A stretch of 64,000 nucleotides of DNA, taken from an uncultured Verrucomicrobiota bacterium. Its GTDB lineage: Bacteria > Verrucomicrobiota > Verrucomicrobiia > Limisphaerales > UBA1319. The stretch is from assembly GCA_903845125.1 (NCBI GenBank), contig CAIMWS010000344.1, forward strand, positions 24,290 to 88,289, read 5' to 3'. The position numbers and the translations under genes were made by a program. The notes under the pieces are model-generated. The model was not told the origin of the DNA. It saw only the letters and a program-made list of their open reading frames with translations, and did not search any database. This document shows, one piece after another, positions 2,803 to 54,451 of this stretch (its first letter is position 1; the number at the start of each line of letters is the position of its first letter).

Positions 2803-3036
2803 CGGTTTGTGCGTGTCGTGTCTCGTTTATAGCTCCAGCAAACCATGGATTTCCCCGCCGGTCAAACCTGCACCTGCCGGCCATGTCAGCGGCGGCACCT
2901 TTTTCCCAGCCGGCGCCTGGGTACGTATAAAATACGCAGGTGAGTCTTTTGCCAACCGGCTGGCCCCGGCTTACTGTGTCCGGCAGGAGCGGGCCTGCGC
3001 AGTAGCTCTGCCCGTTCGTGAAAAAAACCGAAATCC

Positions 3037-3152
3037 CAAACCGCAAGAACCCTATGACAAACCTGCACCGTCTGGCCCTCCTGGGCCTCGCCCTGGTGGG
3101 CGTCAATCTGCAACTTCCCGCCGCCGATCCCCCGGCGCTGGATGATAATCTA
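3037..3152 (+). repeat. homogenised 5' segment of paralogue 1 (near-identical to 4094..4209)
   Basis: By-eye alignment at offset 1057 nt covers 17 nt of leader plus the first 99 nt of coding sequence. The two copies differ at only 3 positions, whereas the rest of the two genes is clearly diverged. Confidence 0.85.
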
Positions 3153-4093: not shown

Positions 4094-4209
4094 CAAACCG
4101 AAAGAACCCTATGACAAACCTGCACCGTCTGGCCCTCCTGGGCCTCGCCCTGGCGGGCGTCAATCTGCAACTTCCCGCCGCCGATTCCCCGGCGCTGGAT
4201 GATAATCTC
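4094..4209 (+). repeat. homogenised 5' segment of paralogue 2 (near-identical to 3037..3152)
   Basis: See 3037..3152. Confidence 0.85.
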
Positions 4210-11120: not shown

Positions 11121-11413
11121 AGCCCGGGCCCGCCGGCCGGAAAAACGCCTTAACGCCCCTCAAGGGGCTCAGTTGTTTTAACGCCGTCGTATTAGGCTGG
11201 CCATTGCTCCGGAAAACGCGTGCGTGACTTTACCCGGCCAGGTTCGACCATGGGCAATTTAACCAGCGTTGATCCGGACCCGGAATGCCCAACCATTGGC
11301 CAAAGTGCTCCCGGCATGGTCTGGTGGTGCGCAAGGATTGATCACCCAGCCGCTCGAATTGGATGCCCCATGGGGTGGTTCAAGGGAATACCTGCCATGA
11401 GCCGCCCGGCGGC

Positions 11414-12757: not shown

Positions 12758-12979
12758 ATCCGCCTGTCGTTCGGGTACACTCGTTTCATTCGCTTTCCTT
12801 ATGGTAGCCCCCACCCCCGGCGGGGCAAGGGCAATTTCGCCTCTGGAGGATCCACGCCTGGGCACCGCCGGCGCGATGCCTGGCGCCTGCTCCGTTGAAA
12901 AGGGTGCCTGCGCGCCACCGCGGCGCTCCCTGCAATGGGGTTTGCGGCCGGCGCCCATTCCTGCCAGGCTGGTTGCCAT

Positions 12980-13405: not shown

Positions 13406-13535
13406 CCGTACGTTCCATCCTGGCTTTGGTTGAAACCCATGCGGCCGTCGCCGGCCGCTCCGCGGCCAAACCTCCCCTTGCCGAGGCACGCAGCCCCCAG
13501 CACCACGCCGGCCGGGAATGGCCAGTGCCGCAGGT

Positions 13536-14516
13536 TCATGGGTGGACCCCGTTCACGACATTTTCCAGGGGTTCGCCCAGCACCGCCCCGCGGGCGATCC
13601 GGGCGGCGGTGGAGCGCATTTCCGCGATCGATTCCACGCTGCAAAAGGCCGCGTGGCAGGTGACGATCAAGTTCGGGGTGGCGGCCTCCTCCGCGGTTTG
13701 CAGCGGCTCGTCCTCCACCACATCCAGGCCCGCGCCGCCCAGGCGGTTTTCCCGCAGGGCGGCCAGGATGGCCGTTTTCTTGATGATGGCGCCCCGGGCG
13801 GTGTTGACCAGGTAGGCCGTTGGTTTCATCAGGCTCAATTCCCGCTCGGCGATCAAATGGCGGGTCTCCTCGTTCAGCGGGCAGTGGAGGGACACCACGT
13901 CCGCCGTTTGCAGCAGTTCGGGGAGGGTGCGGCAGCGGGCGATGCCCAGGGCTTTGTGCACGCCGTTGGCCAGGTAAGGATCGTAAAACGTCACTTTGAA
14001 ACCGAGGGCCTTGGCCCGCAGTGCCACCGCCGTGCCGATGCGGCCGAGGCCCACCACCCCGAACACCAGCTCCCGCAGCCGCCGGATTTTCGGGGCCACC
14101 CGGATGAGCCAGCCCAGCTTTTTGGCCTCCTCGTTCAGCGGGAACAGCTGGCGGCACAACGCCAAAGCCAGGGCCAGGGCGTGGTCCGCCACCTCCTCGG
14201 TGCCGTAGTCCGGCACGTTGCACACGGCGATGCCCAGGCGGGCGGCGGCGGCGATATCCACCGAATCGAAACCCACCCCGTTGCGCACGATGGCCCGGCA
14301 TTGCCGGAGCGTGCCAATGCCCGCCGCCGTGATGGGGAAATTCTGCCAGGCGATGAGGGCTGTGGCCTGGCGCACCTGCTCGTTGAAATCCGCGTCGCTA
14401 TGGCACCAAAAGCTCTCCACTTCGGCCGCCTCCCCGATGATTTCCTTCTCGATCCGGGCTTCCGGATCGCTGCGCGGGGATACCGCCCAATCCAATATGC
14501 AAATCTTAGGTTTCAT
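13536..14516 (-). CDS. D-isomer-specific 2-hydroxyacid dehydrogenase (CtBP-like), NAD-binding
   Basis: 326-aa ORF. It has the Rossmann motif GVVGLGRIGTAVALRA and a catalytic-region pattern ...VNTARGAIIK...GAGLDVVEDEP. Confidence 0.85.
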   Translation of the reverse strand: MKPKICILDWAVSPRSDPEARIEKEIIGEAAEVESFWCHSDADFNEQVRQATALIAWQNFPITAAGIGTLRQCRAIVRNGVGFDSVDIAAAARLGIAVCNVPDYGTEEVADHALALALALCRQLFPLNEEAKKLGWLIRVAPKIRRLRELVFGVVGLGRIGTAVALRAKALGFKVTFYDPYLANGVHKALGIARCRTLPELLQTADVVSLHCPLNEETRHLIAERELSLMKPTAYLVNTARGAIIKKTAILAALRENRLGGAGLDVVEDEPLQTAEEAATPNLIVTCHAAFCSVESIAEMRSTAARIARGAVLGEPLENVVNGVHP

Positions 14517-14686
14517 GCTTTTACGCGACGGTCATTTTTGCTGATCCAGCGCCGTTTTGGCAAGGTCCGCCTTCATCCGCCAGCGCCGTCGCCCGGGGTG
14601 GTCTGCCGCACCGGATAGCCGCCGCCTTGCCGCGGATCATTTTCTGGTTGCCCGCCCGGAACCGGCGCACTAGGGTTTGGGAAATT

Positions 14687-31221: not shown

Positions 31222-33636
31222 ATGAAATCAGGTGTCAGACAAAAGGCTTGCTGCGCATCAGTGATGGTGATGGTCTTTTGCACGGTGCAAACAACCGCCC
31301 AAACCAAAACGGTGGTCATTGGCTGGAACGACCTGGGCATGCATTGTATGGATGGCCGGGACGAGTCCGTTTTTTCCCTGCTGCCACCCTTTAACACGAT
31401 TCACGCGCAGGTGATCCAGGATGGCAAGTTGGCCACCGGCACGAACAGCCTGGCGGCCACCTATGAAGCGGTGGCTGACCCGCAGGGATCCATCAACACC
31501 ACCTCCCAGGGGAAGGTGAATTTCTGGAATTTTGCGCCGGTTCTGTTCGGCACGAACCTGGCGCCGGACCTGGGATTGGGCGGTTACGCGATGCCGGGCC
31601 CCGGCAACCACCCGCAAAAAATGGGTTTCAGTTCCGCCCTCAAATGGTTCTCGGCCGAAGGCATCCCGATCGTGCCCTACGATGACGCCGGGCAAAATAA
31701 CCCCTACCCGATGCTGCGGCTCACGGCCCGCAACGCCGCCGGGACCGGCCTGGCCCAGGCGGACATCGTGCTCCCCGTCTCGGACGAGATGGATTGCCGT
31801 ACCTGCCATCAATCCGGCGCTTCGCCCGAAGCCAAACCAAGGGGAGGCTGGGCATGGCACTATGACCGCCAAAAGGATTACAAACTGAATATTTTGCGCC
31901 TGCACGACGAACACCTCCAATTCTACAACTATTATGCCGGCCACCTGGCTCAGGCCGGGTACGACACCAACGGTTTGTATGCGACCGTGCAACAGGGCCA
32001 ACCGATTCTGTGCGCGCGCTGCCACCAATCCAACGCCTTGCCCGGCTCTGGCCACAGCCGGTTGACGCCGCTGACCCAGGCCATCCACAACCGCCACACC
32101 TATGTGAGCGATCCCACGACCGGCATGGTTCTGAATGCCTCCGACAACCGTTCGGCTTGCTACCGGTGTCACCCAGGTTCCGACACCCGCTGCCTGCGCG
32201 GGGCGATGGGCTCGGCGGTGGGGCCGGATGGCCGCCTGGCGATGCAATGCCAAAGCTGCCATGGCGCCATCAGCCGGGTGGCTGCGGCCAGCCGCACGGG
32301 CTGGCTGGACGAGCCGCAATGCCAGAACTGCCACACCGGTGACGCCGTCACCAACCGCGGCCTGCTGCGATACACCTCGGTTTTCGACGCCTCCAACCAG
32401 GTGCGGCAGGCGGCCAGCACCCGGTTCGCCACCCAGACCAATGTGCCATCCACCGGCTTTTCCCTCTACCGGTTCTCCCAGGGGCACGGGGGCCTGGCTT
32501 GTTCGGCGTGCCATGGGCCGCCGCACGCGGAATATCCTTCCAGCGAGCCCAACGACAATGTTCAAAGCCAGGCTCTGCAGGGGCATGGGGGCACGGTGAG
32601 CGAATGCACCGTCTGCCACCCGGCCATGCCCAACACGGCCAACGGCGGTCCCCACGGCTTGCATGCCATCGGGCAGGCCTGGGTGGGCGCGCATCCCGGT
32701 TACGCCGAGCGCAACGGCACCGCCACCTGCAAGCCTTGCCATGGCGCGGATTACCGTGGAACGGTGCTTTCGCAAGCCCTGGCGGACCGGACCTTGAGCG
32801 CCATGGGAACCAAGCGTTTCTGGCGCGGATTCCAGATCGGCTGCTACACCTGCCATAACGGACCGAGCAATGACAATGCCAACCCCAATCGGGCTCCCGC
32901 GGTCCAAAATGTCAGCCTTCAAACCACTTACAGCCAGTCAGCCACGGTGAACCTGGGCGGCACGGATGCGGATGGCAATACCCTGGTTTTCCGCATCGTC
33001 ACGCAGCCGGTTCACGGCACGGTGGGACTCTCCAACCGCGTGGCGACTTATTACCCGGAAACCGGTTACACCGGGGCCGACTCCTTCACTTTTGCGGCGC
33101 GCGACGGCTCCACGGATTCCAACCTGGGAACCGTGAATGTGACCGTGACGGCCGGGCTTTACACTTTGGAAAGCTCCGTGCTGGCTCCCACCCAGGCGGC
33201 CGCCCGGCAAATGATTCCCTTCTGGGCCAGGTTGAAAACCAGCGCCCCCTCGGTGCCGGTGGAATTCAACTGGGACTTCGGAGATAACACCGCCCCGGGC
33301 CGGGATCAGTATGCGACGCACCTTTATGCCGCCGCGGGCGTCTACCAATGGCAGTTGGTGGCCAAGGCTGGCGGCCTCTCCTCCACCAACCAGGGCACCG
33401 TGGAGGTCAGCGCGGTCCAGGATGCTCCGGTCCTCCAGGCCGACCGGCAAGGCAGCCAGTTGGTGTTAAGCTGGCCCGGATCGTTGACCGGCTTCATCCT
33501 GCAATCCACCAGCGTGCTGGGCCCGCAAGCAGCCTGGTTGCCCGCGCCTGAACCGGCGGTCCTGACCGGCGGCCAATACCGCTCGACCAATCAATTCGGC
33601 AATCAGCCCCGGTATTTCCGGCTGGCGCGGCCGTGA
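31222..33636 (+). CDS. secreted nine-haem c-type cytochrome fused to cadherin/Ig-like, PKD-like and W...FYRL modules
   Basis: 804 aa. There are nine CxxCH motifs: CRTCH, CARCH, CYRCH, CQSCH, CQNCH, CSACH, CTVCH, CKPCH and CYTCH. These are followed by DADGNTLVFRIVTQPVHGTVG...YTGADSFTFAARDGS, then FNWDFGDNTAPGRDQYATHLYAAAGVYQWQL, then ...LVLSWPG...PRYFRLARP. Confidence 0.85.
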   Translation: MKSGVRQKACCASVMVMVFCTVQTTAQTKTVVIGWNDLGMHCMDGRDESVFSLLPPFNTIHAQVIQDGKLATGTNSLAATYEAVADPQGSINTTSQGKVNFWNFAPVLFGTNLAPDLGLGGYAMPGPGNHPQKMGFSSALKWFSAEGIPIVPYDDAGQNNPYPMLRLTARNAAGTGLAQADIVLPVSDEMDCRTCHQSGASPEAKPRGGWAWHYDRQKDYKLNILRLHDEHLQFYNYYAGHLAQAGYDTNGLYATVQQGQPILCARCHQSNALPGSGHSRLTPLTQAIHNRHTYVSDPTTGMVLNASDNRSACYRCHPGSDTRCLRGAMGSAVGPDGRLAMQCQSCHGAISRVAAASRTGWLDEPQCQNCHTGDAVTNRGLLRYTSVFDASNQVRQAASTRFATQTNVPSTGFSLYRFSQGHGGLACSACHGPPHAEYPSSEPNDNVQSQALQGHGGTVSECTVCHPAMPNTANGGPHGLHAIGQAWVGAHPGYAERNGTATCKPCHGADYRGTVLSQALADRTLSAMGTKRFWRGFQIGCYTCHNGPSNDNANPNRAPAVQNVSLQTTYSQSATVNLGGTDADGNTLVFRIVTQPVHGTVGLSNRVATYYPETGYTGADSFTFAARDGSTDSNLGTVNVTVTAGLYTLESSVLAPTQAAARQMIPFWARLKTSAPSVPVEFNWDFGDNTAPGRDQYATHLYAAAGVYQWQLVAKAGGLSSTNQGTVEVSAVQDAPVLQADRQGSQLVLSWPGSLTGFILQSTSVLGPQAAWLPAPEPAVLTGGQYRSTNQFGNQPRYFRLARP

Positions 33637-33792
33637 TCCCCACCAGCGCTTTTGCCCCAGTGCATTGAAAGCGGGTTGGCCGGGCCCACCGCCGGGGCTG
33701 GCCGGCCCGGAGCCGCCGGTGGTGCTCATTATCTCCATTGAAAACGGGGTGGGGAATCCCTATCCTGGAGGTGTGGAAACATTTGTTTTGCC

Positions 33793-34965
33793 ATGAAAGA
33801 ATCCGGGTTCCCATTCCCGGCTATCGTCGGCCAGGACGCCTTGAAAGCCGCCCTGTTGCTCAACGCGGTGGATCCCGCCATTGGCGGGGTTTTGATCCGG
33901 GGGCACAAAGGCACGGGCAAATCCACTGCCGCCCGGGCCTTGGGCAGCCTGCTGCCCGCCATTGAAGTGTTGGAAGGATGCCCGTTCAACTCCAGCCCGG
34001 CGGCCCCTTTTCTGCTGGATGACCTCCGGCCCGGGGGCGCCGCGGTTCAACGCCCGACGCCCTTTGTGGAACTGCCGCTCAATACCACCGAGGACCGCCT
34101 GGTGGGAACCCTGCACCTGGAAAAGGCCCTCGCCACCGGGCGCCGTCAATTCGAGCCCGGCCTGCTCGCCGCCGCCAATCGGGGTATCTTATATGTCGAT
34201 GAAGTCAACCTGCTGGATGACCACCTGGTGGATCTGCTGCTGGACGCCGCCGCTTCGGGCAGGAATTGCGTGGAGCGGGAGGGCATATCCCTGTCGCATC
34301 CCGCCCGGTTCATGCTGGTCGGCACCATGAATCCGGAGGAGGGGGAATTACGGCCCCAGTTCCTGGATCGGTTTGGCTTGTGCGTCACGGTGGAGCAAAT
34401 CACGGATCTGGAGGCCCGCCAGGAAATCCTGCGCCGCCGCCTGGCTTACGAGGCCGATCCGGCACTTTTTGCCACCCTGTGGGACACCGACTGCCAGCTT
34501 TACGCGGAGCAAATCCGGACGGCCCGCCAAAACCTGGCCGCCACCCGCTGGGACGACCGGTTCCTGGAGTGGACCGTCCGCCTTTGCCGGGGATTGGCGG
34601 TGCAAGGCCATCGGGCGGACATCACCTTGCTCAAGACCGCCCGCGCCCATGCGGCATTCCTGGAAAAATCCGAACTCGACCAGGACGATCTGGCGGCGGC
34701 GGCCCGGCTGGCCCTGCCGCATCGCATGCCAGCTTCCCCGCTCGCCTCGCCCCTGCTGATGCGCGAGCAGTTGGACCGCGCCTTGAAGCAGCTTTTCACG
34801 GGCCAAGCCGACCCGGAAGAGGCCGATTCCGGGGAGCCGTCGGAAGACTTGGAGGATCTGGCTCAAACCATGCAAATCCCCGGGGCCTGCGCCGCCGGCA
34901 GCATTGTCCTGGCCTTCTTAAAAAAAAAGAGCTTGAGACAGCCATCCAGCCCGATCTGCAAATAA
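33793..34965 (+). CDS. ChlI/BchI-like AAA+ ATPase (Mg-chelatase subunit I family), zero-frame product
   Basis: The N-terminus FPFPAIVGQDALKAALLLNAVDPAIGGVLIRGHKGTGKSTAARAL is diagnostic of ChlI/BchI. Walker B is ILYVDEVNLLDDHLVD, with FMLVGTMNPEEGELRPQFLDRFG. The C-terminus has an acidic linker, then FLKKK over an A9 run, and a stop 12 codons later. Confidence 0.85.
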   Translation: MKESGFPFPAIVGQDALKAALLLNAVDPAIGGVLIRGHKGTGKSTAARALGSLLPAIEVLEGCPFNSSPAAPFLLDDLRPGGAAVQRPTPFVELPLNTTEDRLVGTLHLEKALATGRRQFEPGLLAAANRGILYVDEVNLLDDHLVDLLLDAAASGRNCVEREGISLSHPARFMLVGTMNPEEGELRPQFLDRFGLCVTVEQITDLEARQEILRRRLAYEADPALFATLWDTDCQLYAEQIRTARQNLAATRWDDRFLEWTVRLCRGLAVQGHRADITLLKTARAHAAFLEKSELDQDDLAAAARLALPHRMPASPLASPLLMREQLDRALKQLFTGQADPEEADSGEPSEDLEDLAQTMQIPGACAAGSIVLAFLKKKSLRQPSSPICK

Positions 34966-35783
34966 GCTGCGCGGAATTGGACCTGGAGGATCTGGCCCCG
35001 GGGGGATTGGACCCCGCCCGCCGATCCCGGGTCCGGATCGCCTCCCGTACGGGTCGTTACCTCAAAGCCGGTCCCATCAAGGCCGGGGAGCACGGCTTTG
35101 ACCTCGCCTGGGCTGCCACTTTGCGCGCCTCCGCGCTGCGCCGCGTGGTCGAATCAAGCTTGGATTCCCGGGTAATCCGGGCCGATTGGCGTAAAAAATT
35201 GCGCTATCGGACGTGCGACCGCCTTCTGGTGTTCGTGGTGGATGCCTCGGATTCCATGGCCACCCGTTTGCACCAAAGGCTCCGGGCTGCCAAAGGAGCC
35301 GTCCTGGCCATGTTGCACCAAGCCTATCAAAAACGGAATCAGGTGGCTTTGGTGGCCTTCGGCGGGGAACGCGCCACCGTGGTTTTACCCCCCACCCATA
35401 GCATCCACCTGGCCAGGGAACGGCTGGCGTGGCTGCTAGCAGGCGGTGCCACCCCGCTCGCCATGGGCCTGTTCACATCCTGGCAACTTATTCGCAATGA
35501 AAGGCTTAAACACCCGGAAATCAAACCTACCCTCATCCTGCTCTCGGATGGGGAAGCCAACGTTCCCCTGATTCCGGGCAATCCCCCCTGGGTTGAAGTC
35601 CTGAATCTGGCCGGCCAAATTCGCCAGGACCAAGTGTCCTCGGTGGTTGTGGATGTGGCGAACCGTTGGCATAAATCACCGGTTTTGGATAAACTCGCCG
35701 CCGCACTCGGTTCCCGGCAAATTCATTTGGCGGAAATCAAAGCGAAATATATCGTTAAAGCTGTCGCCGATGTCGCCTTTTAA
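34929..35783 (+). CDS. von Willebrand factor A (vWA) domain region, ChlD C-terminal-like; start unresolved (no ATG) and probably expressed as a fusion with 33793..34929
   Basis: In the -1 frame relative to the ChlI-like ORF: ...RRSRVRIASRTGRYLK...LLVFVVDASDSMA (MIDAS DxSxS)...VALVAFGGERATVVLPPT...GGATPLAMGL...ILLSDGEANV. There is no in-frame ATG between 34266 and the MIDAS motif. The track ORF upstream of 34929 overlaps the ChlI frame and looks non-coding. Confidence 0.7.
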   Translation, partial: ELETAIQPDLQISCAELDLEDLAPGGLDPARRSRVRIASRTGRYLKAGPIKAGEHGFDLAWAATLRASALRRVVESSLDSRVIRADWRKKLRYRTCDRLLVFVVDASDSMATRLHQRLRAAKGAVLAMLHQAYQKRNQVALVAFGGERATVVLPPTHSIHLARERLAWLLAGGATPLAMGLFTSWQLIRNERLKHPEIKPTLILLSDGEANVPLIPGNPPWVEVLNLAGQIRQDQVSSVVVDVANRWHKSPVLDKLAAALGSRQIHLAEIKAKYIVKAVADVAF

Positions 35784-35985
35784 AGTTACCCCAATGAACT
35801 ATTTGAAAGTTACTTGCGATCCGGCTTGGTCGCAGATAGGATATGGGCAGGTGGTCTAACTGGGCAGGGGGCCGGGAAATTTTGAAAAATGCCGTAAAAA
35901 GTTAAATATCCGGTTGACATCCTCGTCTCAGTGCTTAGACTTGGCGCAAAGTGTTTGTGGAAACTGTACCTATTGGATTAAAATT

Positions 35986-36798
35986 ATGAAACGCGAGAGA
36001 AGCCTTTTTCTGAAATGGGCAGCTTATGGCGCCGCTCTTTTTATTGCGTCAGCAGCCATAACTGCCGAAGCTCAAAGCAAGTCCGGGTCCGCCAAAGTTC
36101 AGTCTGTCCGGGGAACCGCACAATTTCAAGAGGCGGGTGGCCAGTGGGCGAATCTAACCGTGGGTAAAATCCTCGGGCCCGGAGCCGTGATCAAAACCGC
36201 CCTGGGCTCCGTCGTGGATCTCTATTTGAAGCAAAACGGGCCGGTGGTGCGGGTAACTGAAGATACCACCCTTTCCCTTGAAAAACTGCTTTATGATGAA
36301 ACCGCCGATGGCGCCGTGATTCAAACCTTGCTCGACCTCAAAAACGGCCGGATTCTGGGGAACGTAAAGAAATTGGCTTCTGCCTCCAAATACGAGGTTA
36401 AGATTCCTACGGGCACGGTTGGTATTCGTGGCACTACTTACGACATCAGCACCCGGGGTATCGTGCATGTGTTCCAAGGCTCGGTCTTGATCACCTTGAC
36501 GGGTGCCAACGGAGTAGTTACGTGGAGTGGCACCGTGAACGCGGGTCAGACCTTCACCGCCGGTGTTGCCGGTGCCCCGCCGACCGTCGGTCCCACCCCC
36601 ACCGGGGTAACCCAGCAGGGAACTGTCTTCCGGGATGTGGTGAACACAATTTTGACGGACAATGGTGAAACCATCACGGTAACACCCACGACTCCCACTG
36701 GGACTCCGACCGGCGAGACCACGACGCCTCCCGACCAAAATCCGCCGAACCCGCCGACGTCACCCATCAGCCCTGGTGGCAATCCGCCGCCCCAGTAA
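35986..36798 (+). CDS. secreted FecR-domain protein with Thr/Pro-rich tail
   Basis: ATG 35986 gives MKRERSLFLKWAAYGAALFIASAAITAEA. The FecR-like beta segment is VRGTAQFQEAGGQWANLTVGKILGPGAVIKT...VKIPTGTVGIRGTTYDI. The C-terminal tail is TPTTPTGTPTGETTTPPDQNPPNPPTSP. Confidence 0.75.
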   Translation: MKRERSLFLKWAAYGAALFIASAAITAEAQSKSGSAKVQSVRGTAQFQEAGGQWANLTVGKILGPGAVIKTALGSVVDLYLKQNGPVVRVTEDTTLSLEKLLYDETADGAVIQTLLDLKNGRILGNVKKLASASKYEVKIPTGTVGIRGTTYDISTRGIVHVFQGSVLITLTGANGVVTWSGTVNAGQTFTAGVAGAPPTVGPTPTGVTQQGTVFRDVVNTILTDNGETITVTPTTPTGTPTGETTTPPDQNPPNPPTSPISPGGNPPPQ

Positions 36799-36870: not shown

Positions 36871-39438
36871 ATGGGTGAAAAAACCAAAACTGTGCGGATC
36901 AACCTGCCTTGGGTGATGACCCTGGTGGTGGTGGGCGTCCTGGTGGTTTTGCAGGTCATAGCCCATTACTGGCCCGGTTTTTTCATCAATCAGCTCGATA
37001 ATATCAGTTACGATTGGCGGGTGCAGATTGCGAGCAAGCATTCCCCGCCACTGTCCACTAACCTGGCGGTGGTGGCTGTGGATGAGCTCACCCGCGATTG
37101 GTTAGGCAAAGGAGAATTAAAAGAGGGAACGACGGGCACCGTTTTCCGGGCGGATTGGCCGTATCCAAGACATTTGCATGGCCGTATTGTTCGTGAGTTG
37201 AAGGCCCAGGGCGCCCATGCGGTGGCTTTTGACGTTATGTTCGCCGAGCGTCACCCTGATAATCCCGCGGTGCCAATGCCTTTGGCTGACGCCTCCAAAC
37301 TCGGTTTTTCCCCGGCCGAAATCGAAAAACTCACACCGATTCCCTACTCGCCCATTGTTCCCCAAAAACAGCCCGATACCCCCGAGGTGAATAAGGTGCC
37401 GGATATTCCCGGGGTGAGCGTGGAATCCGATGAATTTTTCGCCATCGCCAATCGCCAGGCCGGCAACGTGATCCTGGCGGCCAATTCTGCGGAAAACGTG
37501 GTTCCGGATCTCCTTTTTCGGACCAATGCGGCGGGGATCGCCGATATTTCCTCCTTTCCGGACGGGGATGGTATTTTGCGCCGTATCAAACCATTCACGG
37601 ACATTCCCATTTGGGAACCCACTCTTAAACAAGTCGTGGAAAATGAAGGTTTTCAGACTTCGAATTACGACATAAAAACCAACCAGATCGTTTTCACCCA
37701 TGTGGAGGCGGGCAAAACCAACCGGTTGGTCGTGCCTATTGGCCAGGATGGCAACTACTGCCTCAAGGATTTTTACCGGGTGGATCTCCAGCCATTGAGC
37801 GCGGACCAGCGCCAGGCAGCGGAAGCCATGCTGGCGCGCCGGGCCAAACCGTACACGATGCAACGGGTATGGAATATGGGGATAGTCTTGGGCGCCCAAT
37901 TCCTTGGCTTGGACTTGGATCGTGCCCAGGCTGATCCGGCGGGCAAACTATTTTTGCCCGGAACCAATGGCGTGAACCGGGTGTTGCCCTTGGACCGCCA
38001 GGGTTTTGTGCTGGTGGATTGGTTAACTTCCCGCGACACGGATTTGCCCCGGATGTCTTACGGCCTGGTCTTGCAATTCGACGCGATCCGCAATAGCACC
38101 AACGCGAGCCTGATTTTCAGCAACGTCTTCCAGCAATTAAAAAAAGACGGCCTCTTGAGCCTCCCCGACGACAAACCGTTAAAAGGCAAGCTGGTGGTCA
38201 TTGGGTCTGTGCTATCCGGCAGCAATGTGCGCGATCAGGGGCCAACCCCTTTGGGCGCAAGCACCCTTTACGTCAGCTGCCACTGGAACGTTGCCGATTC
38301 GCTGATCCGCGGCCGGTTTATACGCCAATTCCCGTTGCCGGTGCTGCTCCTGTTGATCATCCTGCCGGCCCTGGCTTCCGCCTGGCTCACCTATAATTTA
38401 CGCGCGCTGGCAGCCTTCAGCAGCGTGATGCTGATCATCGCGGCCTACTTTGGCGTGGGCGTGCTGGCTTACACCTGGCTGCGCTGGCGGTTGCCGATGG
38501 CCATGCCGGTATTGGGCGGGCTGCTGATGACCCATGTCTGCACCATTACCCACCGGGTTGTAAGGGAGCAGAAAGAACGGCGCCGCATTAAATCCATTTT
38601 TGAAAAAGTGGTTTCCCCCAACGTAGTGGACGAACTGCTGAGCGCGGAATCCCTGGCCTTGGGCGGGGCGCGGCGCGAAGTCACCGTGCTTTTTTCCGAT
38701 GTGCGCGGCTTCACGGAAATGACCGACCAAAGCCAGGCCCGGGCCGATGATTATGTGCGCGAGCGGAACCTCAGCAACCGCGAGGCGGCCGAGGTTTATG
38801 ACGAGCAGGCGCGCGAAGTGCTGGCCACTGTAAACCTGTTTCTCACGACGGTGGTGGGGCACGTCATCAATAATCGAGGCACCTTTGACAAATACATCGG
38901 CGATTGTGTGATGGCTTTCTGGGGGGCGCCTACCTCCAACCCCCGCCATGCGGTTGATGCCGTCCGCGCCGCCATCGCGGCCCAGCGCGCCATGCACCGG
39001 CTCAATCTCGACCGCGAAGCCGAAAACCAGCGGCGGCAGCAGGAAAACACGGTCCGCGTCGCCAAGGGCCAGCCGCCCCTGCCTTCGCTCGCGGTGCTCT
39101 CCTTGGGCACCGGCATCAATACCGGAACGGTCACTGCCGGTCTGATGGGCTCGGACCAGACCCAGGTGAATTACACCGTGTTCGGCCGGGAGGTGAACCT
39201 GGCCAGCCGCCTGGAGGGCGTTTCCGGCCGGGGGCGCATCATCATCAGCGCCACCACCTTTGCTTCCCTGCAGGCGGAGAATCCGGAATTGGCCAGCAGC
39301 TGTATGCCGTTGGTGCCGGTGCATGTCAAAGGCTTCCTTAAACCGGTCCCGGTTTACGAGGTTCCCTGGCGCGGGGAGGCAGCGCCCGCCTTGCCGGCGC
39401 CGGCCGCGGGCGAAACCGCCCCCCCCGCCAAAACGTAA
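36871..39438 (+). CDS. CHASE2-sensor class III adenylate/guanylate cyclase
   Basis: 855 aa. The N-terminal TM is VMTLVVVGVLVVLQVIAHYW, followed by a large extracytoplasmic CHASE2-like region, three further TM segments and the cyclase homology domain (VTVLFSDVRGFTEMTD, FDKYIGDCVMAFWGAP, GINTGTVTAGLMGS, YTVFGREVNLASRLEG). Confidence 0.85.
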   Translation: MGEKTKTVRINLPWVMTLVVVGVLVVLQVIAHYWPGFFINQLDNISYDWRVQIASKHSPPLSTNLAVVAVDELTRDWLGKGELKEGTTGTVFRADWPYPRHLHGRIVRELKAQGAHAVAFDVMFAERHPDNPAVPMPLADASKLGFSPAEIEKLTPIPYSPIVPQKQPDTPEVNKVPDIPGVSVESDEFFAIANRQAGNVILAANSAENVVPDLLFRTNAAGIADISSFPDGDGILRRIKPFTDIPIWEPTLKQVVENEGFQTSNYDIKTNQIVFTHVEAGKTNRLVVPIGQDGNYCLKDFYRVDLQPLSADQRQAAEAMLARRAKPYTMQRVWNMGIVLGAQFLGLDLDRAQADPAGKLFLPGTNGVNRVLPLDRQGFVLVDWLTSRDTDLPRMSYGLVLQFDAIRNSTNASLIFSNVFQQLKKDGLLSLPDDKPLKGKLVVIGSVLSGSNVRDQGPTPLGASTLYVSCHWNVADSLIRGRFIRQFPLPVLLLLIILPALASAWLTYNLRALAAFSSVMLIIAAYFGVGVLAYTWLRWRLPMAMPVLGGLLMTHVCTITHRVVREQKERRRIKSIFEKVVSPNVVDELLSAESLALGGARREVTVLFSDVRGFTEMTDQSQARADDYVRERNLSNREAAEVYDEQAREVLATVNLFLTTVVGHVINNRGTFDKYIGDCVMAFWGAPTSNPRHAVDAVRAAIAAQRAMHRLNLDREAENQRRQQENTVRVAKGQPPLPSLAVLSLGTGINTGTVTAGLMGSDQTQVNYTVFGREVNLASRLEGVSGRGRIIISATTFASLQAENPELASSCMPLVPVHVKGFLKPVPVYEVPWRGEAAPALPAPAAGETAPPAKT

Positions 39439-41562: not shown

Positions 41563-42582
41563 TCAACCGGCGCCGGGTGGTTTGACGTCGGCAAAAATGA
41601 TAACCCCCGCGCTGGTCTGCAGCAAACTCAAAACCGTGGCTTCCACCTGCTGCCCGACGAGGTGCTGCGCCTGGTTGACCACCACCATGGTGCCATCCTG
41701 CATATATCCTACTCCCTGGCCTTTGTCCTTGCCTTCACGCACAACCTTAAGGTTCAAGACCTCGCCCGGCAGAGTTACCGGCTTGAGCGCCACCGTCAGT
41801 TCGTGGAGGTTGACGTGGTTGACCGATTGGAGCGAGGCGATCTTGCTCAGGTTGTAATCGGTGGTGTAGAGCTTGGCGTTGAGCATGCGGGCCAGCCGGA
41901 TCAGCTTGGCGTCCACTTCGGTTTCGTTGAGGATGTCGCTCTCGTGGATTTTGACCTCGTTTTTCGTGTTGCGCTGGATCCGGTTGAGCATATCCAGCCC
42001 ACGGCGGCCCCGGGCGCGTTTGATGGGATCCTTTGAGTCGGCGATTTGCTGCAGCTCCTTCAACACGAAGCGCGGCACCACCACGACCCCTTCCACAAAC
42101 CGGGCCTCGATCAGGTCCGCCACCCGGCCGTCAATAATGGCGCTCGTATCCAACAGGAGCAGGTTGTCCGGCCGGTTTTGGGAGGAGAAGCGCACGAACG
42201 GAATGATCAGGTAAAAATCCTCCTTGTTGCTGCGCATGGCCAGTATCATGCCGATGTAGCCAAAAAAGACGAAAACGCTCAGGCGGATGATCCATTGGAC
42301 CGGCTGGTCGGCGAACATGAACAGCTTGGAATTGTCGATCATCCACGCGATCAAGGTGCCCAGCACCAGGCCGAACGTGGCGGCCGAGAAGGCCCGCAAC
42401 GAAAAGCCCTTGAGCATTTCGTCCAGAGCAATCATCAGGCCGCCAAAGCCAAAGCCGATGCCAATGCCGGCGAGGGGCCCGCCGTGGATTATAACCGGTT
42501 GTACCTCCTCAATCGCATAACCGCCGGTGATGCATAACAGTAAAAAAAATATCCGCAATACCCAAATTCCGCCCGTGGCCAT
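41563..42582 (-). CDS. membrane-anchored PIN/TRAM-domain protein (YacL-like)
   Basis: There are four N-terminal TM segments. The PIN region is LLLLDTSAIIDGRVADLIEARFVEGVVVVPRFVLKELQ...LYTTDYNL. The C-terminal TRAM-like region is PGEVLNLKVVREGKDKGQGVGYMQDGTMVVV. The ATG directly abuts the TAA of the upstream gene. Confidence 0.8.
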   Translation of the reverse strand: MATGGIWVLRIFFLLLCITGGYAIEEVQPVIIHGGPLAGIGIGFGFGGLMIALDEMLKGFSLRAFSAATFGLVLGTLIAWMIDNSKLFMFADQPVQWIIRLSVFVFFGYIGMILAMRSNKEDFYLIIPFVRFSSQNRPDNLLLLDTSAIIDGRVADLIEARFVEGVVVVPRFVLKELQQIADSKDPIKRARGRRGLDMLNRIQRNTKNEVKIHESDILNETEVDAKLIRLARMLNAKLYTTDYNLSKIASLQSVNHVNLHELTVALKPVTLPGEVLNLKVVREGKDKGQGVGYMQDGTMVVVNQAQHLVGQQVEATVLSLLQTSAGVIIFADVKPPGAG

Positions 42583-49205: not shown

Positions 49206-50309
49206 TTACTTGGGATTGCCCAGGAATTCCGGCAGATGGAATTCCTTGCCCTCGACGATGTGATCGATGGCGCTGGTAACCTGCGGGCTGGATATGGCCT
49301 GGATGCGCGCTGGCGGATAACCGATGGAGGCGAAATCCACCAGGCTCCCTTGCGCCCGGTGGCAGTCCGTGCAGTGCAACGTGGGATTGCGCCGCTGCGG
49401 GTGAATCTGCTGAAGCAGCTGTTTTTTCTGCTCTTCACCCAGGGCATTGCGCTGGCTCAGAAAATCCCGCACCGCCGATTCATTTCCGGTATTCCTTAAG
49501 AACGGCTTCCGGGCGCCGGCCTCCAGCAAGGCCAGCTTGGCGCCATATTCTCCACGGAAATGCCCTTGGACTGCATCGCGGGTCACCTTGACCAGGCGGC
49601 GGAATTCATCGCTGGTGACGCGAACCGCCGCCAGGTGCTCCGCCAGGGCGGAGAGCTCGGTTTCCCCGTGGGCCTCGGTGGAGGCGGCCCGGAGCAGCCG
49701 CACGATGCCGGCCTGGTCCTGCACCGTGAAATTCGTGGCGCCGCGCGTGGCCGGGCTCGTCAGCCATTCAAAAGCCCGCAGCAAGGATGGGGCTTCAGTG
49801 AGCGTCTTGCCCGACTTCAAATCATACCAGGCCAGCGCCAGTGGTTTCTGGTCCGTACGCACATGGCACACTCCGCAATGCAGGCTGGTGGCGTGCATGT
49901 TCAGGAAGGCCCGGTCGGCCTTGTTCTTGCCGTGCGGCAGGGGATCGTGGCATTGGCTGATGGTGCACCCGTTCAGCCGGTCGCTCTGGAAGCCTTCGTC
50001 CAACCGGTGATAATGAGAGAGCGGGCTGCGCCGGTTCGCGGCGGTGGTTCCCGCCGCGGCGGCGGTTTCCGGGCGCAGCAGGACCGATTCGCTGAGCCGG
50101 GTGGGAACGTCCGTGATCCGGGCGGGCGGGCGGGCGGGCAGCATCAAGGAGGAAATGAGATAATAGCAGGCCTGGCCGCTCAGGCCGAGGATGATCGTGA
50201 TCAGCAGCAAAGCGTAACAGCGTTTGCCCAGGCCCCAGAGCAGCCGGCCCGCCAGCGCCAGGGCGCCGCCGGTCTTCCCCGGATTGTTGGATCCAGCGTC
50301 GTGGCTCAT
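49206..50309 (-). CDS. membrane-anchored c-type cytochrome (two CxxCH plus one Cx4CH motif)
   Basis: The TM is CYALLLITIILGLSGQACYYLISSL. Motifs are CTISQCH (Cx4CH), CGVCH and CTDCH. ATGA overlap with the upstream multihaem/cyt b gene. Confidence 0.75.
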   Translation of the reverse strand: MSHDAGSNNPGKTGGALALAGRLLWGLGKRCYALLLITIILGLSGQACYYLISSLMLPARPPARITDVPTRLSESVLLRPETAAAAGTTAANRRSPLSHYHRLDEGFQSDRLNGCTISQCHDPLPHGKNKADRAFLNMHATSLHCGVCHVRTDQKPLALAWYDLKSGKTLTEAPSLLRAFEWLTSPATRGATNFTVQDQAGIVRLLRAASTEAHGETELSALAEHLAAVRVTSDEFRRLVKVTRDAVQGHFRGEYGAKLALLEAGARKPFLRNTGNESAVRDFLSQRNALGEEQKKQLLQQIHPQRRNPTLHCTDCHRAQGSLVDFASIGYPPARIQAISSPQVTSAIDHIVEGKEFHLPEFLGNPK

Positions 50310-52246
50310 ATGGAAGCCTCCTCCCGTTCGCCATCTTCGGTGATGCCCAGCGACCTGGCTACCTCCCGCACCTGGTCGGAATGCCCTTCGCTCATTTCGG
50401 CCACGGGCGTGTCGCCGGTGATGGTCGCCAGCGACAAGGGGAATACGTTCGGCGCGAGCATGACGTTGACAATGTGCAGGATGCCCACATGAATGATCGC
50501 CAGAAACGCCTCAAAGGTGTGCGCGATCAAGGCGAAATTCAGCACGCGGCCCGAGAGGAAATGCGAGCTGATTTCGGCACCCCAGAGCATGAATCCGGTG
50601 GCGCCCAGCAGCACGGTGCCCCAGAAGACCCCGATGTACTCAAATTTTTCCTTGATGCTGAAGCGTCCGAAAGTGGGCCGTTCCTTGCGCAGGTGCAGCA
50701 GGTGGGCCAGTAGTTGGACAAAATCGAGGACATCGCGCGGGCCAATCCACAGCGGCAGGGAGATGACGGATTGGATCCAGCTCACCGGCCGGCCGGCGCG
50801 GGCTTCGAACCGCCGCTTCAGATACATGGTCGCCAGGATGTAAACGCCATGCCCGGCCAGCCCGGCCACGAGCAATACCCCGCCCCAGTGGTGGATCATG
50901 CGGGCCACGTTCAGGCCGCCGAAGCTGTCGATCAGGAACCGCGACCATTCCCGGTCGGCAAATTTCAGCGGGAACCCCGTCAGCACCAGCAGGGTGAACA
51001 GGATGGCCAGGAACCAATGCTGCAGCCGCTGGGCGATGGTGAAGCGCATCAGCCGTTTCCGGCCCTCGGGATGCGCCAGCACCGCGCGGGTGAGATGCTC
51101 CATGCGCCGATCGTGGTGGTGCGCCCAGCCTACGACCTGGGGGAATAGCTCGAGCACGCAGATCGCCATGGATGGCCCGAAGGTGGCGATGGTCAGCAGG
51201 ATGAAGGCCGCCGCCAGCCAGAACTCCATGGTTCCCCGGATGGAGGGCAGGTCCAAATGCACGCCCGCGGCTCCCAGGGGGGCGTCCGCCCCCGGATGGC
51301 AGGCCGCATTGCGGCAGGTGTCCGCCACGCGCACCGAGCTTACCGAAGAGGCCGGGTTCTCCGGCTTGAGCATGAGGTGGGCATTGGCGCCCGGGGCGAT
51401 GTGGCAGGAGAGGCAGTTCGCCGTTTTTTCGTCGCCCAACAGGGCGGCCTTGCCGTGGAAGCTGAGGATGTAGCTGCTCACGGAATCCTTCATTTTGAAT
51501 TGGTCGCGCACCGCCGGATCGCTGTGGCAAACGGAGCAGACCTGGGCCATTTCCAGGGTCGGCCGCGCGGTTTGCAGGCGGGCGGCCATATGCCGCAGGT
51601 AATAGGCGGTATCGGCTGGCGTTTGCCGCTGGTGGCAAACATCGCAGCGGTCGTAAGTCCGCGTCCCCAATTCCTTCAGCACCGGGATCGAGCCGGTGGG
51701 ATCCCGGAAAACCGGCTCATCGTGGCAAAAAAGGCATTTCGACTGCCCCGAGCCTAGCAACCGCCCTTTGATCTCCCCGACTTTCTTCAGCACCTCGCTG
51801 GTGTGAACCCCTTTTTCCATCATCTCCGCCACATTGCGGTGGCTGAAGCGCTGCTCCGTTACCCCGGGTGTGCCCACATGGCAATTCTTGGTGCAATCGA
51901 CTTTGGAAATCGTCTTGTGGGGCACCACGGCCACCTCGCTACGCTCGTGGCAATCGGTGCAGGATATCACCGCGTGCGGCCCCAGGCGCTGGTGGACATA
52001 TTCCGGCTGCACGAAGAACACGTGGGAGACATCGTTGCTATAGTTGAAATAGCTTAGACCGCGGTATTGGTGGCAGAAAAGGCAGTTATCCGGGTCATCC
52101 GCGCGGGCCGGAGAGGCCGCGCACCAGAGGAATATCACCCCGGCCAGTGCCCGCATCAAGCCGCGCAACAGCCCCTGCCCCAGTGGTTTGCTCCGTCCAG
52201 ACCTCATGCGCGCAACTTCTGAAACCCATGGCTTTGGCGCCAGCAT
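50306..52246 (-). CDS. multihaem c-type cytochrome domain fused to a membrane di-haem cytochrome b (FdnI/HydC-like) domain; CbcL-like architecture
   Basis: The N-terminal periplasmic half has CLFCH, CTDCH, CTKNCH (Cx3CH), CLFCH, CDVCH, CSVCH, CLSCH and CRNAACH (Cx4CH). The C-terminal half has ~5 TM helices with conserved His (QRLQHWFLAILF, ARMIHHWGGVLL, LIAHTFEAFLAIIHVGILH). The start may instead be an internal Met (52207). Confidence 0.85.
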   Translation of the reverse strand: MLAPKPWVSEVARMRSGRSKPLGQGLLRGLMRALAGVIFLWCAASPARADDPDNCLFCHQYRGLSYFNYSNDVSHVFFVQPEYVHQRLGPHAVISCTDCHERSEVAVVPHKTISKVDCTKNCHVGTPGVTEQRFSHRNVAEMMEKGVHTSEVLKKVGEIKGRLLGSGQSKCLFCHDEPVFRDPTGSIPVLKELGTRTYDRCDVCHQRQTPADTAYYLRHMAARLQTARPTLEMAQVCSVCHSDPAVRDQFKMKDSVSSYILSFHGKAALLGDEKTANCLSCHIAPGANAHLMLKPENPASSVSSVRVADTCRNAACHPGADAPLGAAGVHLDLPSIRGTMEFWLAAAFILLTIATFGPSMAICVLELFPQVVGWAHHHDRRMEHLTRAVLAHPEGRKRLMRFTIAQRLQHWFLAILFTLLVLTGFPLKFADREWSRFLIDSFGGLNVARMIHHWGGVLLVAGLAGHGVYILATMYLKRRFEARAGRPVSWIQSVISLPLWIGPRDVLDFVQLLAHLLHLRKERPTFGRFSIKEKFEYIGVFWGTVLLGATGFMLWGAEISSHFLSGRVLNFALIAHTFEAFLAIIHVGILHIVNVMLAPNVFPLSLATITGDTPVAEMSEGHSDQVREVARSLGITEDGEREEASI

Positions 52247-52429: not shown

Positions 52430-54451
52430 ATGTCAGAGGCGGAAAACATGCCCGGTTCATGGACCGCACCCGATTTGCGGATCGATTACACAAAGGAGCT
52501 GAACCCCGCACAATGTGCGGCGGTGACCGCTCCCCCCGGCCCCGCGCTGGTGATCGCCGGAGCCGGCTCCGGCAAAACCCGGGTGCTCACCTACCGGGTC
52601 GCTTTCCTGCTGGAGCAAGGCATCCCCCCGGAGCGCATCCTGCTGCTCACTTTCACCAACCGCGCTGCCCGCGAAATGATGGAGCGGGTGACCCGGCTCC
52701 TGGGCCGGGAGCTGCCGGATTTGTGGGGGGGTACTTTTCATTCCATCGGCCATCGCTTTTTGCGGCGCCATGCCGAAGCCGCCGGCTGCCAGCCCAATTT
52801 CACCATCCTGGACCGGGAGGACGCCGAAAAGCTGCTGGCCCAGTGCGTGGAGGAACTGAACCTGGATGCGACCGGCCGTTTCCCCAAAAAGGAGGTGCTG
52901 GCCAGCCTTATTTCCCTGGCGGCCAATGCCCGGGAAACCATCGCGCAGGTCATCAGCCGTCAATTCAGCTGGCTGGCGGAATCCGCCGGGGAAGTCCAGT
53001 CCCTGGCCGGCCATTACCAGGCCCGGAAGCGGGCCGGCAACCTGGTGGATTTCGACGATTTGCTGGTGCTCTGGCTCGAGCTGCTGGAAAAGGACGCCGG
53101 CTTGCGGGAGCGTTACCAGCGCCAGTTCCAATTCATCCTGATTGACGAATACCAGGACACCAACCGCCTGCAAAACGCCCTGGTGGAGCTGCTGGCGGGG
53201 CGGCACCAGAATATCCTGGCCGTGGGGGACGACGCCCAGAGCATTTACTCCTGGCGTGGGGCCCACTTCCTGAACATCCTGGAATTCCCCAAGCGCCACC
53301 CCACCGCCCAGGTTTACAAAATCGAAACCAACTACCGCAGCACCCCGGAAATCCTGGACGTGGCCAATGAAAGCATCGCCCGCAACGTCCATCAACACCC
53401 CAAGGATCTCAACGCGGAACGGCGGTCCGGCTTGAAACCAGTATATGTGAAGTGCCTGAACAGCCGCCAGCAGGCCGTGCTGGTGGCCTCCCAGATCCAC
53501 CGGCTCTGGAATGAAGAAGGGGTGCCGCTGGGGGAAATGGCCATCCTCTACCGCTCCCATTTCCACGCCATGGATCTGCAGCTGGAGCTGCGTCAGCGCC
53601 AGATCCCCGCCGAGGTCACCAGCGGCGTGCCTTTTTTCGAGCAGGCCCACGTCAAGGATGTGGCCGCCCACCTGCGTTTGGTGAATAATCCGGAGGATGA
53701 ATTCTCCTTTCTGCGTGTGGCGCAGTTGATGCCCGGCATCGGCCAAAAAAGCGCCCGCAAACTCTGGGGCCGCTACCGGGACGCCCGCCGGGCATTCGGG
53801 GCCGGGCCGGACCCGGCGCTGGACCTGCGCGGCCTGGAGGCCTGCGAACCGTTGGCGCCCGCCAAAGGCCGGGCGGCCTGGAAGCAGTTCACCGAAACCA
53901 TGCGGCAATTGCACGAAAAAGCCCCCGGCCAGCCCCCGGCGGACCTGATCGGGCTGGTTTTGGATGCCGGGTACAGCGAATACCTGAAATTGACCTTTGC
54001 CAATGCCCCGGCCCGCCTTGAGGATCTCCGCGGGCTCAAGGAATACGCCCGCAAATACCGCAAACTGGACGATTTCCTCGGCGATCTGGCGCTCCAAACC
54101 AGCCTCACGGAACCCACCTCCGCCGCCAGCCCCCCGCGGGACCAGGCGGTGCGCCTCTCCACCATCCACCAGGCCAAGGGCCTCGAGTTCAGCGTCGTGT
54201 TCCTCATCATGCTGTGCGAAAACTTCTTCCCCTCCGCCCCGGCGGTGGAATCCGGGCGGGAGGAGGTGCTGGAGGAGGAGCGCCGGTTGTTTTACGTGGC
54301 CGTGACCCGCGCCAAGGATTTCCTGTTCCTCGTCTCCCCCCTGATCCCCAATGTGCGCGACGCGGACCACCGCCGTGCCCTGCCTTCCCGCTTCGTGGGG
54401 GAACTCTCCCTGGATAAGCTGGAGGAAGTGGATCTCACCACCTGCACCTGA
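52430..54451 (+). CDS. UvrD/PcrA/Rep-family ATP-dependent DNA helicase
   Basis: LNPAQCAAVTAPPGPALVIAGAGSGKTRVLTYRVAFLL (motif I), LLLTFTNRAAREM, FILIDEYQDTN (motif II), LAVGDDAQSIYSWRGA, YRST, and VRLSTIHQAKGLEF...VAVTRAK. Confidence 0.9.
   Translation: MSEAENMPGSWTAPDLRIDYTKELNPAQCAAVTAPPGPALVIAGAGSGKTRVLTYRVAFLLEQGIPPERILLLTFTNRAAREMMERVTRLLGRELPDLWGGTFHSIGHRFLRRHAEAAGCQPNFTILDREDAEKLLAQCVEELNLDATGRFPKKEVLASLISLAANARETIAQVISRQFSWLAESAGEVQSLAGHYQARKRAGNLVDFDDLLVLWLELLEKDAGLRERYQRQFQFILIDEYQDTNRLQNALVELLAGRHQNILAVGDDAQSIYSWRGAHFLNILEFPKRHPTAQVYKIETNYRSTPEILDVANESIARNVHQHPKDLNAERRSGLKPVYVKCLNSRQQAVLVASQIHRLWNEEGVPLGEMAILYRSHFHAMDLQLELRQRQIPAEVTSGVPFFEQAHVKDVAAHLRLVNNPEDEFSFLRVAQLMPGIGQKSARKLWGRYRDARRAFGAGPDPALDLRGLEACEPLAPAKGRAAWKQFTETMRQLHEKAPGQPPADLIGLVLDAGYSEYLKLTFANAPARLEDLRGLKEYARKYRKLDDFLGDLALQTSLTEPTSAASPPRDQAVRLSTIHQAKGLEFSVVFLIMLCENFFPSAPAVESGREEVLEEERRLFYVAVTRAKDFLFLVSPLIPNVRDADHRRALPSRFVGELSLDKLEEVDLTTCT

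Follow-up and report, generated by a model that had tools for sequence, protein, structure and literature searches.

The locus described here is a pair of overlapping open reading frames (ORFs) on the forward strand, at positions 33793 to 35783 of a 64-kb stretch of DNA from an uncultured Verrucomicrobiota bacterium (contig CAIMWS010000344.1). The whole 64-kb stretch set the scope of the analysis and is called the window below. The upstream frame (ORF1, the zero frame) encodes an AAA+ ATPase resembling BchI/ChlI, the frame that follows it, displaced by −1, encodes a vWA domain, and the two meet at an uninterrupted run of nine A's (A9). An earlier note, made from the sequence alone, had proposed a programmed −1 shift at this run that would give both a ChlI-like and a ChlD-like product, and this proposal is supported by single-chain homologues that are colinear with the conceptual fusion and by conservation of A9 and the G that follows it.

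Translation bears out the anatomy described in that note (Table 1). The ChlI-like frame, with its Walker A motif, opens at an ATG and has 11 sense codons left after the run before its TAA at 34963 to 34965, so that the ORF1 product ends in about 60 linker residues and the 11-residue tail SLRQPSSPICK. The acidic linker lies ahead of the shift site in ORF1, where the note had placed it. Because (34920 − 33793) mod 3 equals 2, the zero frame reads TTA AAA AAA AAG through the run, and two in-phase heptamers, A_AAA_AAA (34920 to 34926) and the A_AAA_AAG noted earlier (34923 to 34929), both suit a −1 tandem slip. From G34929, the −1 frame reads ELETAIQPDLQISCAELDLEDL..., beginning ELETAIQPDLQ, and continues to a TAA at 35781 to 35783 through a vWA domain recognized by its motifs DASDS (MIDAS, within 35235 to 35261), GGATPL, and LLSDGEAN. 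The two frames overlap by 37 nucleotides (nt) beyond the shift site, and the +1 frame closes 2 codons past the run. As claimed, the −1 frame lacks an ATG from 34266 up to the MIDAS motif, its first being at 35256 inside that motif; the near-cognate candidate starts are CTG 34956 and TTG 34977, and no sequence resembling a Shine-Dalgarno (SD) element precedes the latter (tgcaaataagctgcgcggaaTTG). The −1-frame peptide ELETAIQPDLQISCAELDLEDLAPGGLDPAR is encoded upstream of all candidate internal starts. Product sizes also agree with the note, with 390 amino acids (aa) for the zero frame and 379 + 284 = 663 aa for the conceptual fusion.

Table 1. Features of the chelatase-like gene, in window coordinates
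Feature	Coordinates	Strand	Basis or content
Promoter-like match, TTGAAA-17-TATCCT	33738..33766	+	9/12 consensus match; weak candidate upstream of ORF1
ORF1, zero frame	33793..34965	+	390-aa BchI/ChlI-like AAA+ ATPase; product of standard decoding
Walker A, GHKGTGKST	33901..33927	+	translation
Walker B region, ILYVDEVNLL	34186..34215	+	translation; aligned to BchI
Acidic linker stretch, ADPEEADSGEPSEDLEDL	34807..34860	+	translation
Shift site, A9 run and G	34920..34929	+	nine A's at 34920-34928, G at 34929
Overlap beyond shift site	34929..34965	+	zero frame, SLRQPSSPICK and TAA; −1 frame, ELETAIQPDLQI, colinear with fused homologues
−1-frame part of predicted long product, 284 aa	34929..35783	+	pre-vWA segment with RRSRVRIASRTGRYLKA, then vWA domain with MIDAS

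The A9 run is the longest homopolymer in the window. Composition was tried as an argument for the run and rejected: 0.65 A9 runs are expected per window, at least one appeared in 39 of 100 dinucleotide-preserving shuffles, and AAA is the commoner lysine codon in the window's confident genes (145 AAA versus 113 AAG). The significance of the run is its position and its conservation in relatives. The second-longest A run, an A8 at 42542 to 42549 (T8 when read on the minus strand), falls within a minus-strand PIN-domain ORF (41563 to 42582), close to its 5′ end and beside the end of an MlaD gene.

Domain architecture and homologues across the junction

Searches of the two halves placed them in the chelatase motor-adaptor family. 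The N-terminal half matched the Pfam families Mg_chelatase, AAA_5, and AAA_lid_2, and alone it matched the NCBIfam model TIGR02030 (BchI-ChlI); residues 6 to 318 align to residues 21 to 333 of the 350 in Rhodobacter BchI (1G8P) with an E value of 5e-93. The C-terminal half matched VWA_2 and VWA over fusion residues 479 to 636, as expected from the earlier description of the −1 frame as a vWA/MIDAS domain, and residues 475 to 649 align to the vWA domain of BchD (2X31) with an E value of 3e-19. Joined at the run, the halves give the layout of AAA+ module, acidic linker, and vWA domain with MIDAS, and the fusion matches NCBIfam TIGR02442, “putative cobaltochelatase,” in a single stretch (residues 6 to 646 on model positions 1 to 640 of 641; 654.1 bits). 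It also matches TIGR02031 (BchD-ChlD) over residues 15 to 654, with a score of 427.9. Judged by homology, the zero-frame product by itself is predicted to be a complete small-subunit-like ATPase, with Walker A and B intact.

The earlier note had raised the question of whether homologues span KKK/ELE as single chains, and they do so as proteins of about 670 aa. When the conceptual fusion was searched against 5.8 billion protein clusters, the top matches were mostly single chains of 640 to 720 aa, with 43 to 55% identity and 97 to 100% query coverage, and these align without a gap over the FLKKK/ELET junction. The window sequence at this point is VLAFLKKKELETAIQPD, compared with VFSFLKKKTTETVVDAD in P0002, LFSFLAKKETERVFEAD in P0003, and LFSFLVQKKKERVFEPD in P0004. 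At L085, the one fused relative in which the DNA was read at the junction and the source of P0004, the lysines are encoded within CAA AAG AAG AAA GAA, an interrupted, nonslippery sequence. Nothing fused and at least 90% identical to the window fusion emerged from this search of 5.8 billion clusters.

Conservation of the run and of both reading frames

Close relatives of the window keep the split. The ORF1 product is identical to a public protein (P0246, in NCBI and ENA, the latter in assembly ERZ1426820) whose 90%-identity cluster has seven full-length members, drawn from NCBI, ENA, JGI, and Logan assemblies, and every one of them is 390 aa long. These 390-aa alleles differ from the window at 14 to 28 residues and end in the same kind of tail; the next match below this cluster among the 5.8 billion clusters is 55% identical. 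At the nucleotide level, three syntenic loci (L087 from GCA_964409245.1, L088, and L089) with 92.9 to 93.3% identity to the window all carry A9 followed by G. The alignments are free of gaps over 1991 nt for L087 and L088 (92.9% identical) and over 1519 nt for L089, which lies on a short contig. Two further loci, L081 and L082, with 95.4% nucleotide identity, likewise align without gaps and retain A9 and G.

The same arrangement is found at a greater distance. L083 and L084, with 62% protein identity and different neighboring genes, read TTC ATA AAA AAA AAG with a zero-frame stop 11 codons farther on, and the A9G of L083 is in the same phase as that of the window. Orthologous loci, a comparison that the earlier note had suggested, therefore keep A9, the following G, and the nearby zero-frame stop at 93 to 95% nucleotide identity and at 62% protein identity. 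Substitutions between the window and L087 are biased toward third codon positions in each half, read in its own frame: 52 of 77 in ORF1 fall at third positions, and in the downstream half (ORF2) 34 of 61 fall at third positions of the −1 frame, with 6 at second positions. This bias shows that purifying selection acts on both frames. The zero-frame tail itself also persists to 62% identity in its length of 11 codons and its PSSPI residues, reading SLRQPSSPICK, SLKRPSSPISK, and TMKPSSSPIIG over the stretch compared in the window, L081, L083, and L087. Dual-coding constraint from the −1 frame (xQPD/EPD) may account for this conservation; alternatively, the tail may have a role of its own in the short product.

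For a view of the wider family, a query split at the slip site was used in tblastn searches covering at least 80 GTDB loci, and the family counts in this report refer to the matches listed, among which the best identity was 57%. Among the 80 matches listed, the vWA half was displaced by −1 from the frame of the AAA+ half at no fewer than 19 loci and fused to it in one frame at 40 or more. The −1 arrangement occurred in Desulfuromonadales, Thermodesulfobacteriota, Desulfofustis/Desulfopila, Spirochaetaceae, Oceanispirochaeta, and many Chloroflexota. When L081 to L083 were added to the matches listed, an in-phase A-rich heptamer lay inside the ORF overlap at 21 of 22 −1 loci. At five loci (L001, L002, L004, L009, and L017) this overlap is just 25 to 34 nt, leaving the run as practically the sole place for the shift. 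A scan of JGI metagenomes with the vWA half confirmed no relatives.

Run length is more uniform than run phase. Nine A's were present at 19 of 24 frameshifted loci among the matches listed, ten at 3, and eight at 1; the remaining locus, L046, has no run of five or more. The run begins at codon position 1, 2, or 3, varying by lineage, and at 17 of the 24 the base after it is G. In a first subgroup (group A: the window, L081 to L083, L001, L002, L004, L040, and the A10 loci L003, L006, and L009), the run sits in the motif PGxxAAGSxxxF(L)KKK, and in a Chloroflexota group it sits in a Lys/Glu-rich linker. Another locus, L005, in the long-read metagenome-assembled genome (MAG) MFD03804, has an A10 at the FLKKK site (about 7135 to 7145) after which homology goes on in the −1 frame; a second, downstream frame break there probably comes from a homopolymer or indel error in assembling the long reads.

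Among the fused genes in the same list, at least nine consecutive A's were seen in only 1 of 40, in frame, in an AT-rich archaeon. This chlD-type gene, from a Candidatus Methanolliviera MAG (L056), is fused in a single frame, and its A9 lies in the linker at 6282 to 6290 (CAA AAA AAA AGG). It could be a reverse, dnaX-like arrangement in which slippage truncates the product, or it could be a chance run in an AT-rich genome.

Probable programmed recoding and the alternatives

Taken with the family comparison, the layout of the gene makes it very probably a frameshift-dependent chlD-type gene (“fs-chlD”) that is expressed through programmed −1 recoding. Under this reading, standard decoding of ORF1 would yield the ChlI/BchI-like ATPase, which would serve as the small, or motor, subunit. 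Part of the time, the frame would move back one base within the A9 run, either because two lysyl-tRNAs slip on A_AAA_AAG during translation or because RNA polymerase adds one A and produces an A10 mRNA. Decoding would then run to 35783 and give a 663-aa ChlD-like adaptor, or medium subunit, with the AAA+ module, acidic linker, and vWA/MIDAS domain. One gene could thereby supply both partners of an I/D-type motor-adaptor pair, at a ratio set by the frequency of the shift. That shifting occurs in the source organism is inferred, as are its level, the assembly of the two products, and their target.

Several observations weigh against this reading or against parts of it. An SD-like element at the stimulatory spacing of about 10 nt is lacking, with no GGAG, GAGG, AGGA, or GGGG in the 25 nt upstream of the run in the window, and the 121 nt downstream fold like shuffled sequence (z = −0.21). 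Over 21 loci among the matches listed, the 70 nt downstream gave z scores between −2.3 and +1.5 and shared no fold, and neither an upstream SD-like element nor a nascent-RNA hairpin in the folded 45 nt upstream was consistent. Both family scores fall below the curated cut-offs, which are 779.45 for TIGR02442 and 499.55 for TIGR02031; the conceptual protein has ChlD-type architecture but is an equivalog of neither enzyme. In public gene calls, the vWA half appears as a gene of its own, of 266 to 268 aa, starting at the equivalent of TTG 34977, and independent initiation or reinitiation of the vWA half is formally possible. Finally, no CobN/ChlH large-subunit gene was found in the 64-kb window, either by Pfam searches of about 37 ORFs or by tblastn with the CobN of L007; the earlier note had already remarked on the absence of a CobN-type subunit.

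Known recoding sites offer two models. Like E. coli dnaX, the gene has an in-phase A_AAA_AAG and would produce, in place of tau and gamma, two proteins that share an N-terminal AAA+ module, with shift efficiency setting their ratio. In contrast to dnaX, it lacks an SD-like stimulator upstream and a conserved stem-loop downstream, its run is nine A's where dnaX has six and a G, and its shifted product is the longer one, where in dnaX it is the shorter. The description of the site as dnaX-type thus stands for the heptamer and fails for its flanking elements. A stimulatory downstream hairpin was dropped as a candidate, given that no fold was shared over the 121 nt of the window or the 70 nt of the 21 loci. 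In addition, close relatives differ more in the 37-nt overlap (5 of 37 positions mismatched) than over the gene as a whole (4.6%), which is unlike a conserved RNA element. The second model is the A9/T9 slippage of Thermus thermophilus dnaX and of insertion sequence (IS) transposases, which resembles the gene described here in having a nine-A homopolymer of conserved length that needs no flanking stimulators; what sets this gene family apart is that it always has the in-phase ribosomal heptamer as well. Transcriptional slippage is also used by many IS transposases.

These comparisons bear on how the frame would be shifted. Transcriptional realignment, in which nascent RNA slips on A9/T9 and A10 mRNAs encode the 663-aa protein in one frame, is a rival in mechanism and not in outcome, it could coexist with ribosomal slippage, and we give it somewhat less than an even chance. 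A heptamer needs only seven A's, in any phase, yet most loci have nine wherever in the codon the run starts, so that length itself appears to be selected; a length that stays constant whatever the phase suggests a process sensitive to run length, either polymerase slippage or ribosomal slippage without stimulators. The missing SD-like and hairpin stimulators fit the same view. Reporter shifting in E. coli rose with run length, from 10% to 40% to 63% for 7, 9, and 11 A's, and realignment uses homopolymers of at least 8, with T. thermophilus dnaX using A9 (PMC3711429). The early +1-frame stop in the window also means that A8 or A11 transcripts would still yield a ChlI-sized protein. On the ribosomal side, an in-phase A_AAA_AAN heptamer is found in every locus as well, and the G after the run creates a dnaX-type AAG in phase-3 loci like the one in the window. 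The loci are also related by descent, so that the nine-A count overstates the number of independent observations, and published work calls such signals ribosomal frameshifting. Between ribosomal and transcriptional shifting, then, the chances are roughly even. A joint reading that combines two departures from the standard picture is offered only tentatively, as something we consider rather unlikely: (a) the signal would be a phase-independent nine-A homopolymer without stimulators, acting mainly through polymerase slippage or stimulator-independent poly-A sliding and not as a dnaX-like cassette, and (b) the frameshifted genes would be orphan I/D motors with a client other than CobN/ChlH.

Two further explanations would do without recoding. 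If the A run were incidental, ORF1 would be a ChlI-like gene followed by a vWA gene expressed by initiation or termination-reinitiation at TTG 34977, 12 nt past the ORF1 stop, and the vWA protein would act as an adaptor by itself, in the manner of NorD, CoxE, CbbO, or ViaA. It is common for an AAA+ motor to work with a vWA adaptor that is a separate protein (bioRxiv 10.64898/2026.07.21.739949), the public annotation already shows such a vWA gene, and some downstream initiation was seen in reporter constructs (PMC3711429). Even so, this arrangement is improbable, since the −1 frame looks like protein and is colinear with fused homologues as soon as the run ends (ELETAIQPD versus ETERVFEAD), ahead of any start. 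The first ATG, GTG, or TTG lies anywhere from 2 to 63 codons past the run and its position is not conserved between loci, TTG 34977 lacks an SD-like sequence, and at L001, L002, L004, and L009 the −1 frame opens merely 1 to 2 nt before the run. Separate genes would also leave unexplained why an uninterrupted A run lies in nearly all overlaps and almost never in fused genes. The other explanation is that the split is an artefact or a form of decay, whether a true A10 fused gene that was miscalled, a recent pseudogene, or phase-variable A9/A10 DNA. Homopolymers are error-prone in both sequencing and replication, and L005, with its A10 and second frame break, illustrates the hazard. The miscall that the earlier note had allowed for is nonetheless excluded in practice by the seven 390-aa alleles at 90% or greater identity, whose sources include several Logan short-read assemblies, together with the lack of any fused protein in that identity range in the search of 5.8 billion clusters. 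Phase variation predicts an in-frame A10 allele, and none was seen. With the split persisting to 62% identity and into other phyla, and with third-position bias in both halves, artefact and recent pseudogene are excluded for practical purposes, and we regard this whole group of explanations, phase variation included, as extremely improbable.

Client, neighborhood, and place in the fs-chlD family

Programmed recoding of this gene type is already in the literature. A cluster of 23 “magnesium chelatase” genes that need a −1 frameshift was reported by Antonov et al. (2013, PMC3711429); the hosts are Pseudomonas, Burkholderia, Delftia, Herpetosiphon, Methanocaldococcus, and Methanococcus, and each gene was annotated as an adjacent pair and had fused homologues elsewhere. 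In overlapping chelatase ORFs, strong purifying selection acts on A_AAA_AAR (Atkins et al. 2016, PMC5009743), and in the passages of Kuznetsov et al. (2022, PMC9227772) that treat these genes they bear the name fs-chlD, after Antonov (2020, MBE 37:2268). The gene in the window is thus an added example of a published phenomenon for chelatase chlD genes, and it fits fs-chlD on every tested feature. It shares with that class the ChlI-like and vWA ORFs overlapping in a −1 relation, the A_AAA_AAR run inside the overlap, the close zero-frame stop, the existence of fused homologues, and the appearance in databases of two adjacent genes. Its anatomy does not depart from the family, and what differs is the host, a poorly sampled and probably Verrucomicrobiota-like lineage.

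The host lineage is glimpsed elsewhere in the window. A UvrD/PcrA helicase at 52430 to 54451 (+) is 54 to 57% identical to proteins of Verrucomicrobia subdivision 3, Verrucomicrobiota, Limisphaerales, and Roseimicrobium, and a 98% match exists exclusively in Logan assemblies. Seven of the 20 scanned ORFs (222 to 511 aa) had no Pfam match at an E value of 1e-5 or below, for example those at 1429 to 2832, 3018 to 4067, 4111 to 5124, 11363 to 12898, and 13518 to 14618.

By homology, the short product would serve as the AAA+ motor and the long product as the adaptor that contacts a client through its vWA/MIDAS domain. The same division into an AAA+ motor and a vWA/MIDAS adaptor is found in BchI/BchD and ChlI/ChlD of Mg-chelatase and in CobS/CobT of the aerobic cobaltochelatase; the locus in the window differs from these in encoding both parts from one gene and in scoring below the equivalog cut-offs. 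A motor-adaptor-executor logic has been described for CobS/CobT/CobN, with parallels in NorQ/D, CoxD/E, CbbQ/O, and RavA/ViaA (bioRxiv 10.64898/2026.07.21.739949). Apart from lacking a large-subunit gene, the 64-kb window contains no second ChlI-like gene and no tetrapyrrole genes, and no cobalamin riboswitch, tRNA, or other Rfam family reached its gathering score anywhere in it.

A CobN gene (Pfam CobN-Mg_chel) was present within 6 kb at 22 of 61 nonframeshifted GTDB loci and at 0 of 19 frameshifted ones among the matches listed (Fisher p = 0.001, a value weakened by phylogenetic nonindependence and short contigs). When the flanking ORFs of both frameshifted subgroups were clustered all against all, no conserved neighbor emerged as a client candidate, only the gene itself and its antisense shadow ORFs. 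The default guess is a CobN-type chelatase subunit whose gene would lie in another part of the genome. Together, the lack of cobN adjacency, the scores below cut-off, and the lack of a conserved neighbor suggest that the client may be neither CobN nor ChlH, and a client other than a known chelatase subunit is a real possibility. In having no large subunit nearby, the locus in the window matches the fs-chlD class described without one (PMC9227772), which includes Spirochaeta thermophila and Brevefilum fermentans, organisms that have fs-chlD without a large subunit and without a chlorophyll or B12 pathway. The subgroup to which the gene in the window belongs includes loci from Spirochaetaceae (L004 and L040).

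The immediate surroundings include genes of other kinds. Directly upstream, 31222 to 33636 (+) encodes an 804-aa multihaem c-type cytochrome (Cytochrome_C7, MtrC/MtrF-like, with paired CXXCH motifs) that also has Big_9, cadherin-like, and PKD domains and is syntenic in all close relatives (L081, L087, and L088). Immediately downstream are a FecR-domain protein (35914 to 36798, +) and an 855-aa CHASE2-domain adenylate/guanylate cyclase (36871 to 39438, +), and no functional link of this pair to the chelatase-like gene was found. The order of cytochrome, chelatase-like gene, FecR protein, and CHASE2 cyclase is common to all close relatives but not to L083. Farther along, at 50306 to 52246 (−), a 646-aa protein has both multihaem cytochrome domains (MtrC/MtrF-like, Cytochrome_C7) and a cytochrome b561/Ni_hydr_CYTB membrane domain.

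For annotation, the consequence is direct. Public pipelines list two genes here, “ChlI” and “VWA domain protein,” and miss the 663-aa product; one recoded gene would be the proper annotation. Neither the constancy of nine A's nor the missing linkage to cobN should surprise specialists in recoding, and both are worth a glance. With seven alleles and relatives at 62% identity, the recoding family gains a well-supported instance, and comparison across the family sharpens two questions, namely, whether the shift is ribosomal or transcriptional and what the I/D pairs without a linked large subunit act upon.

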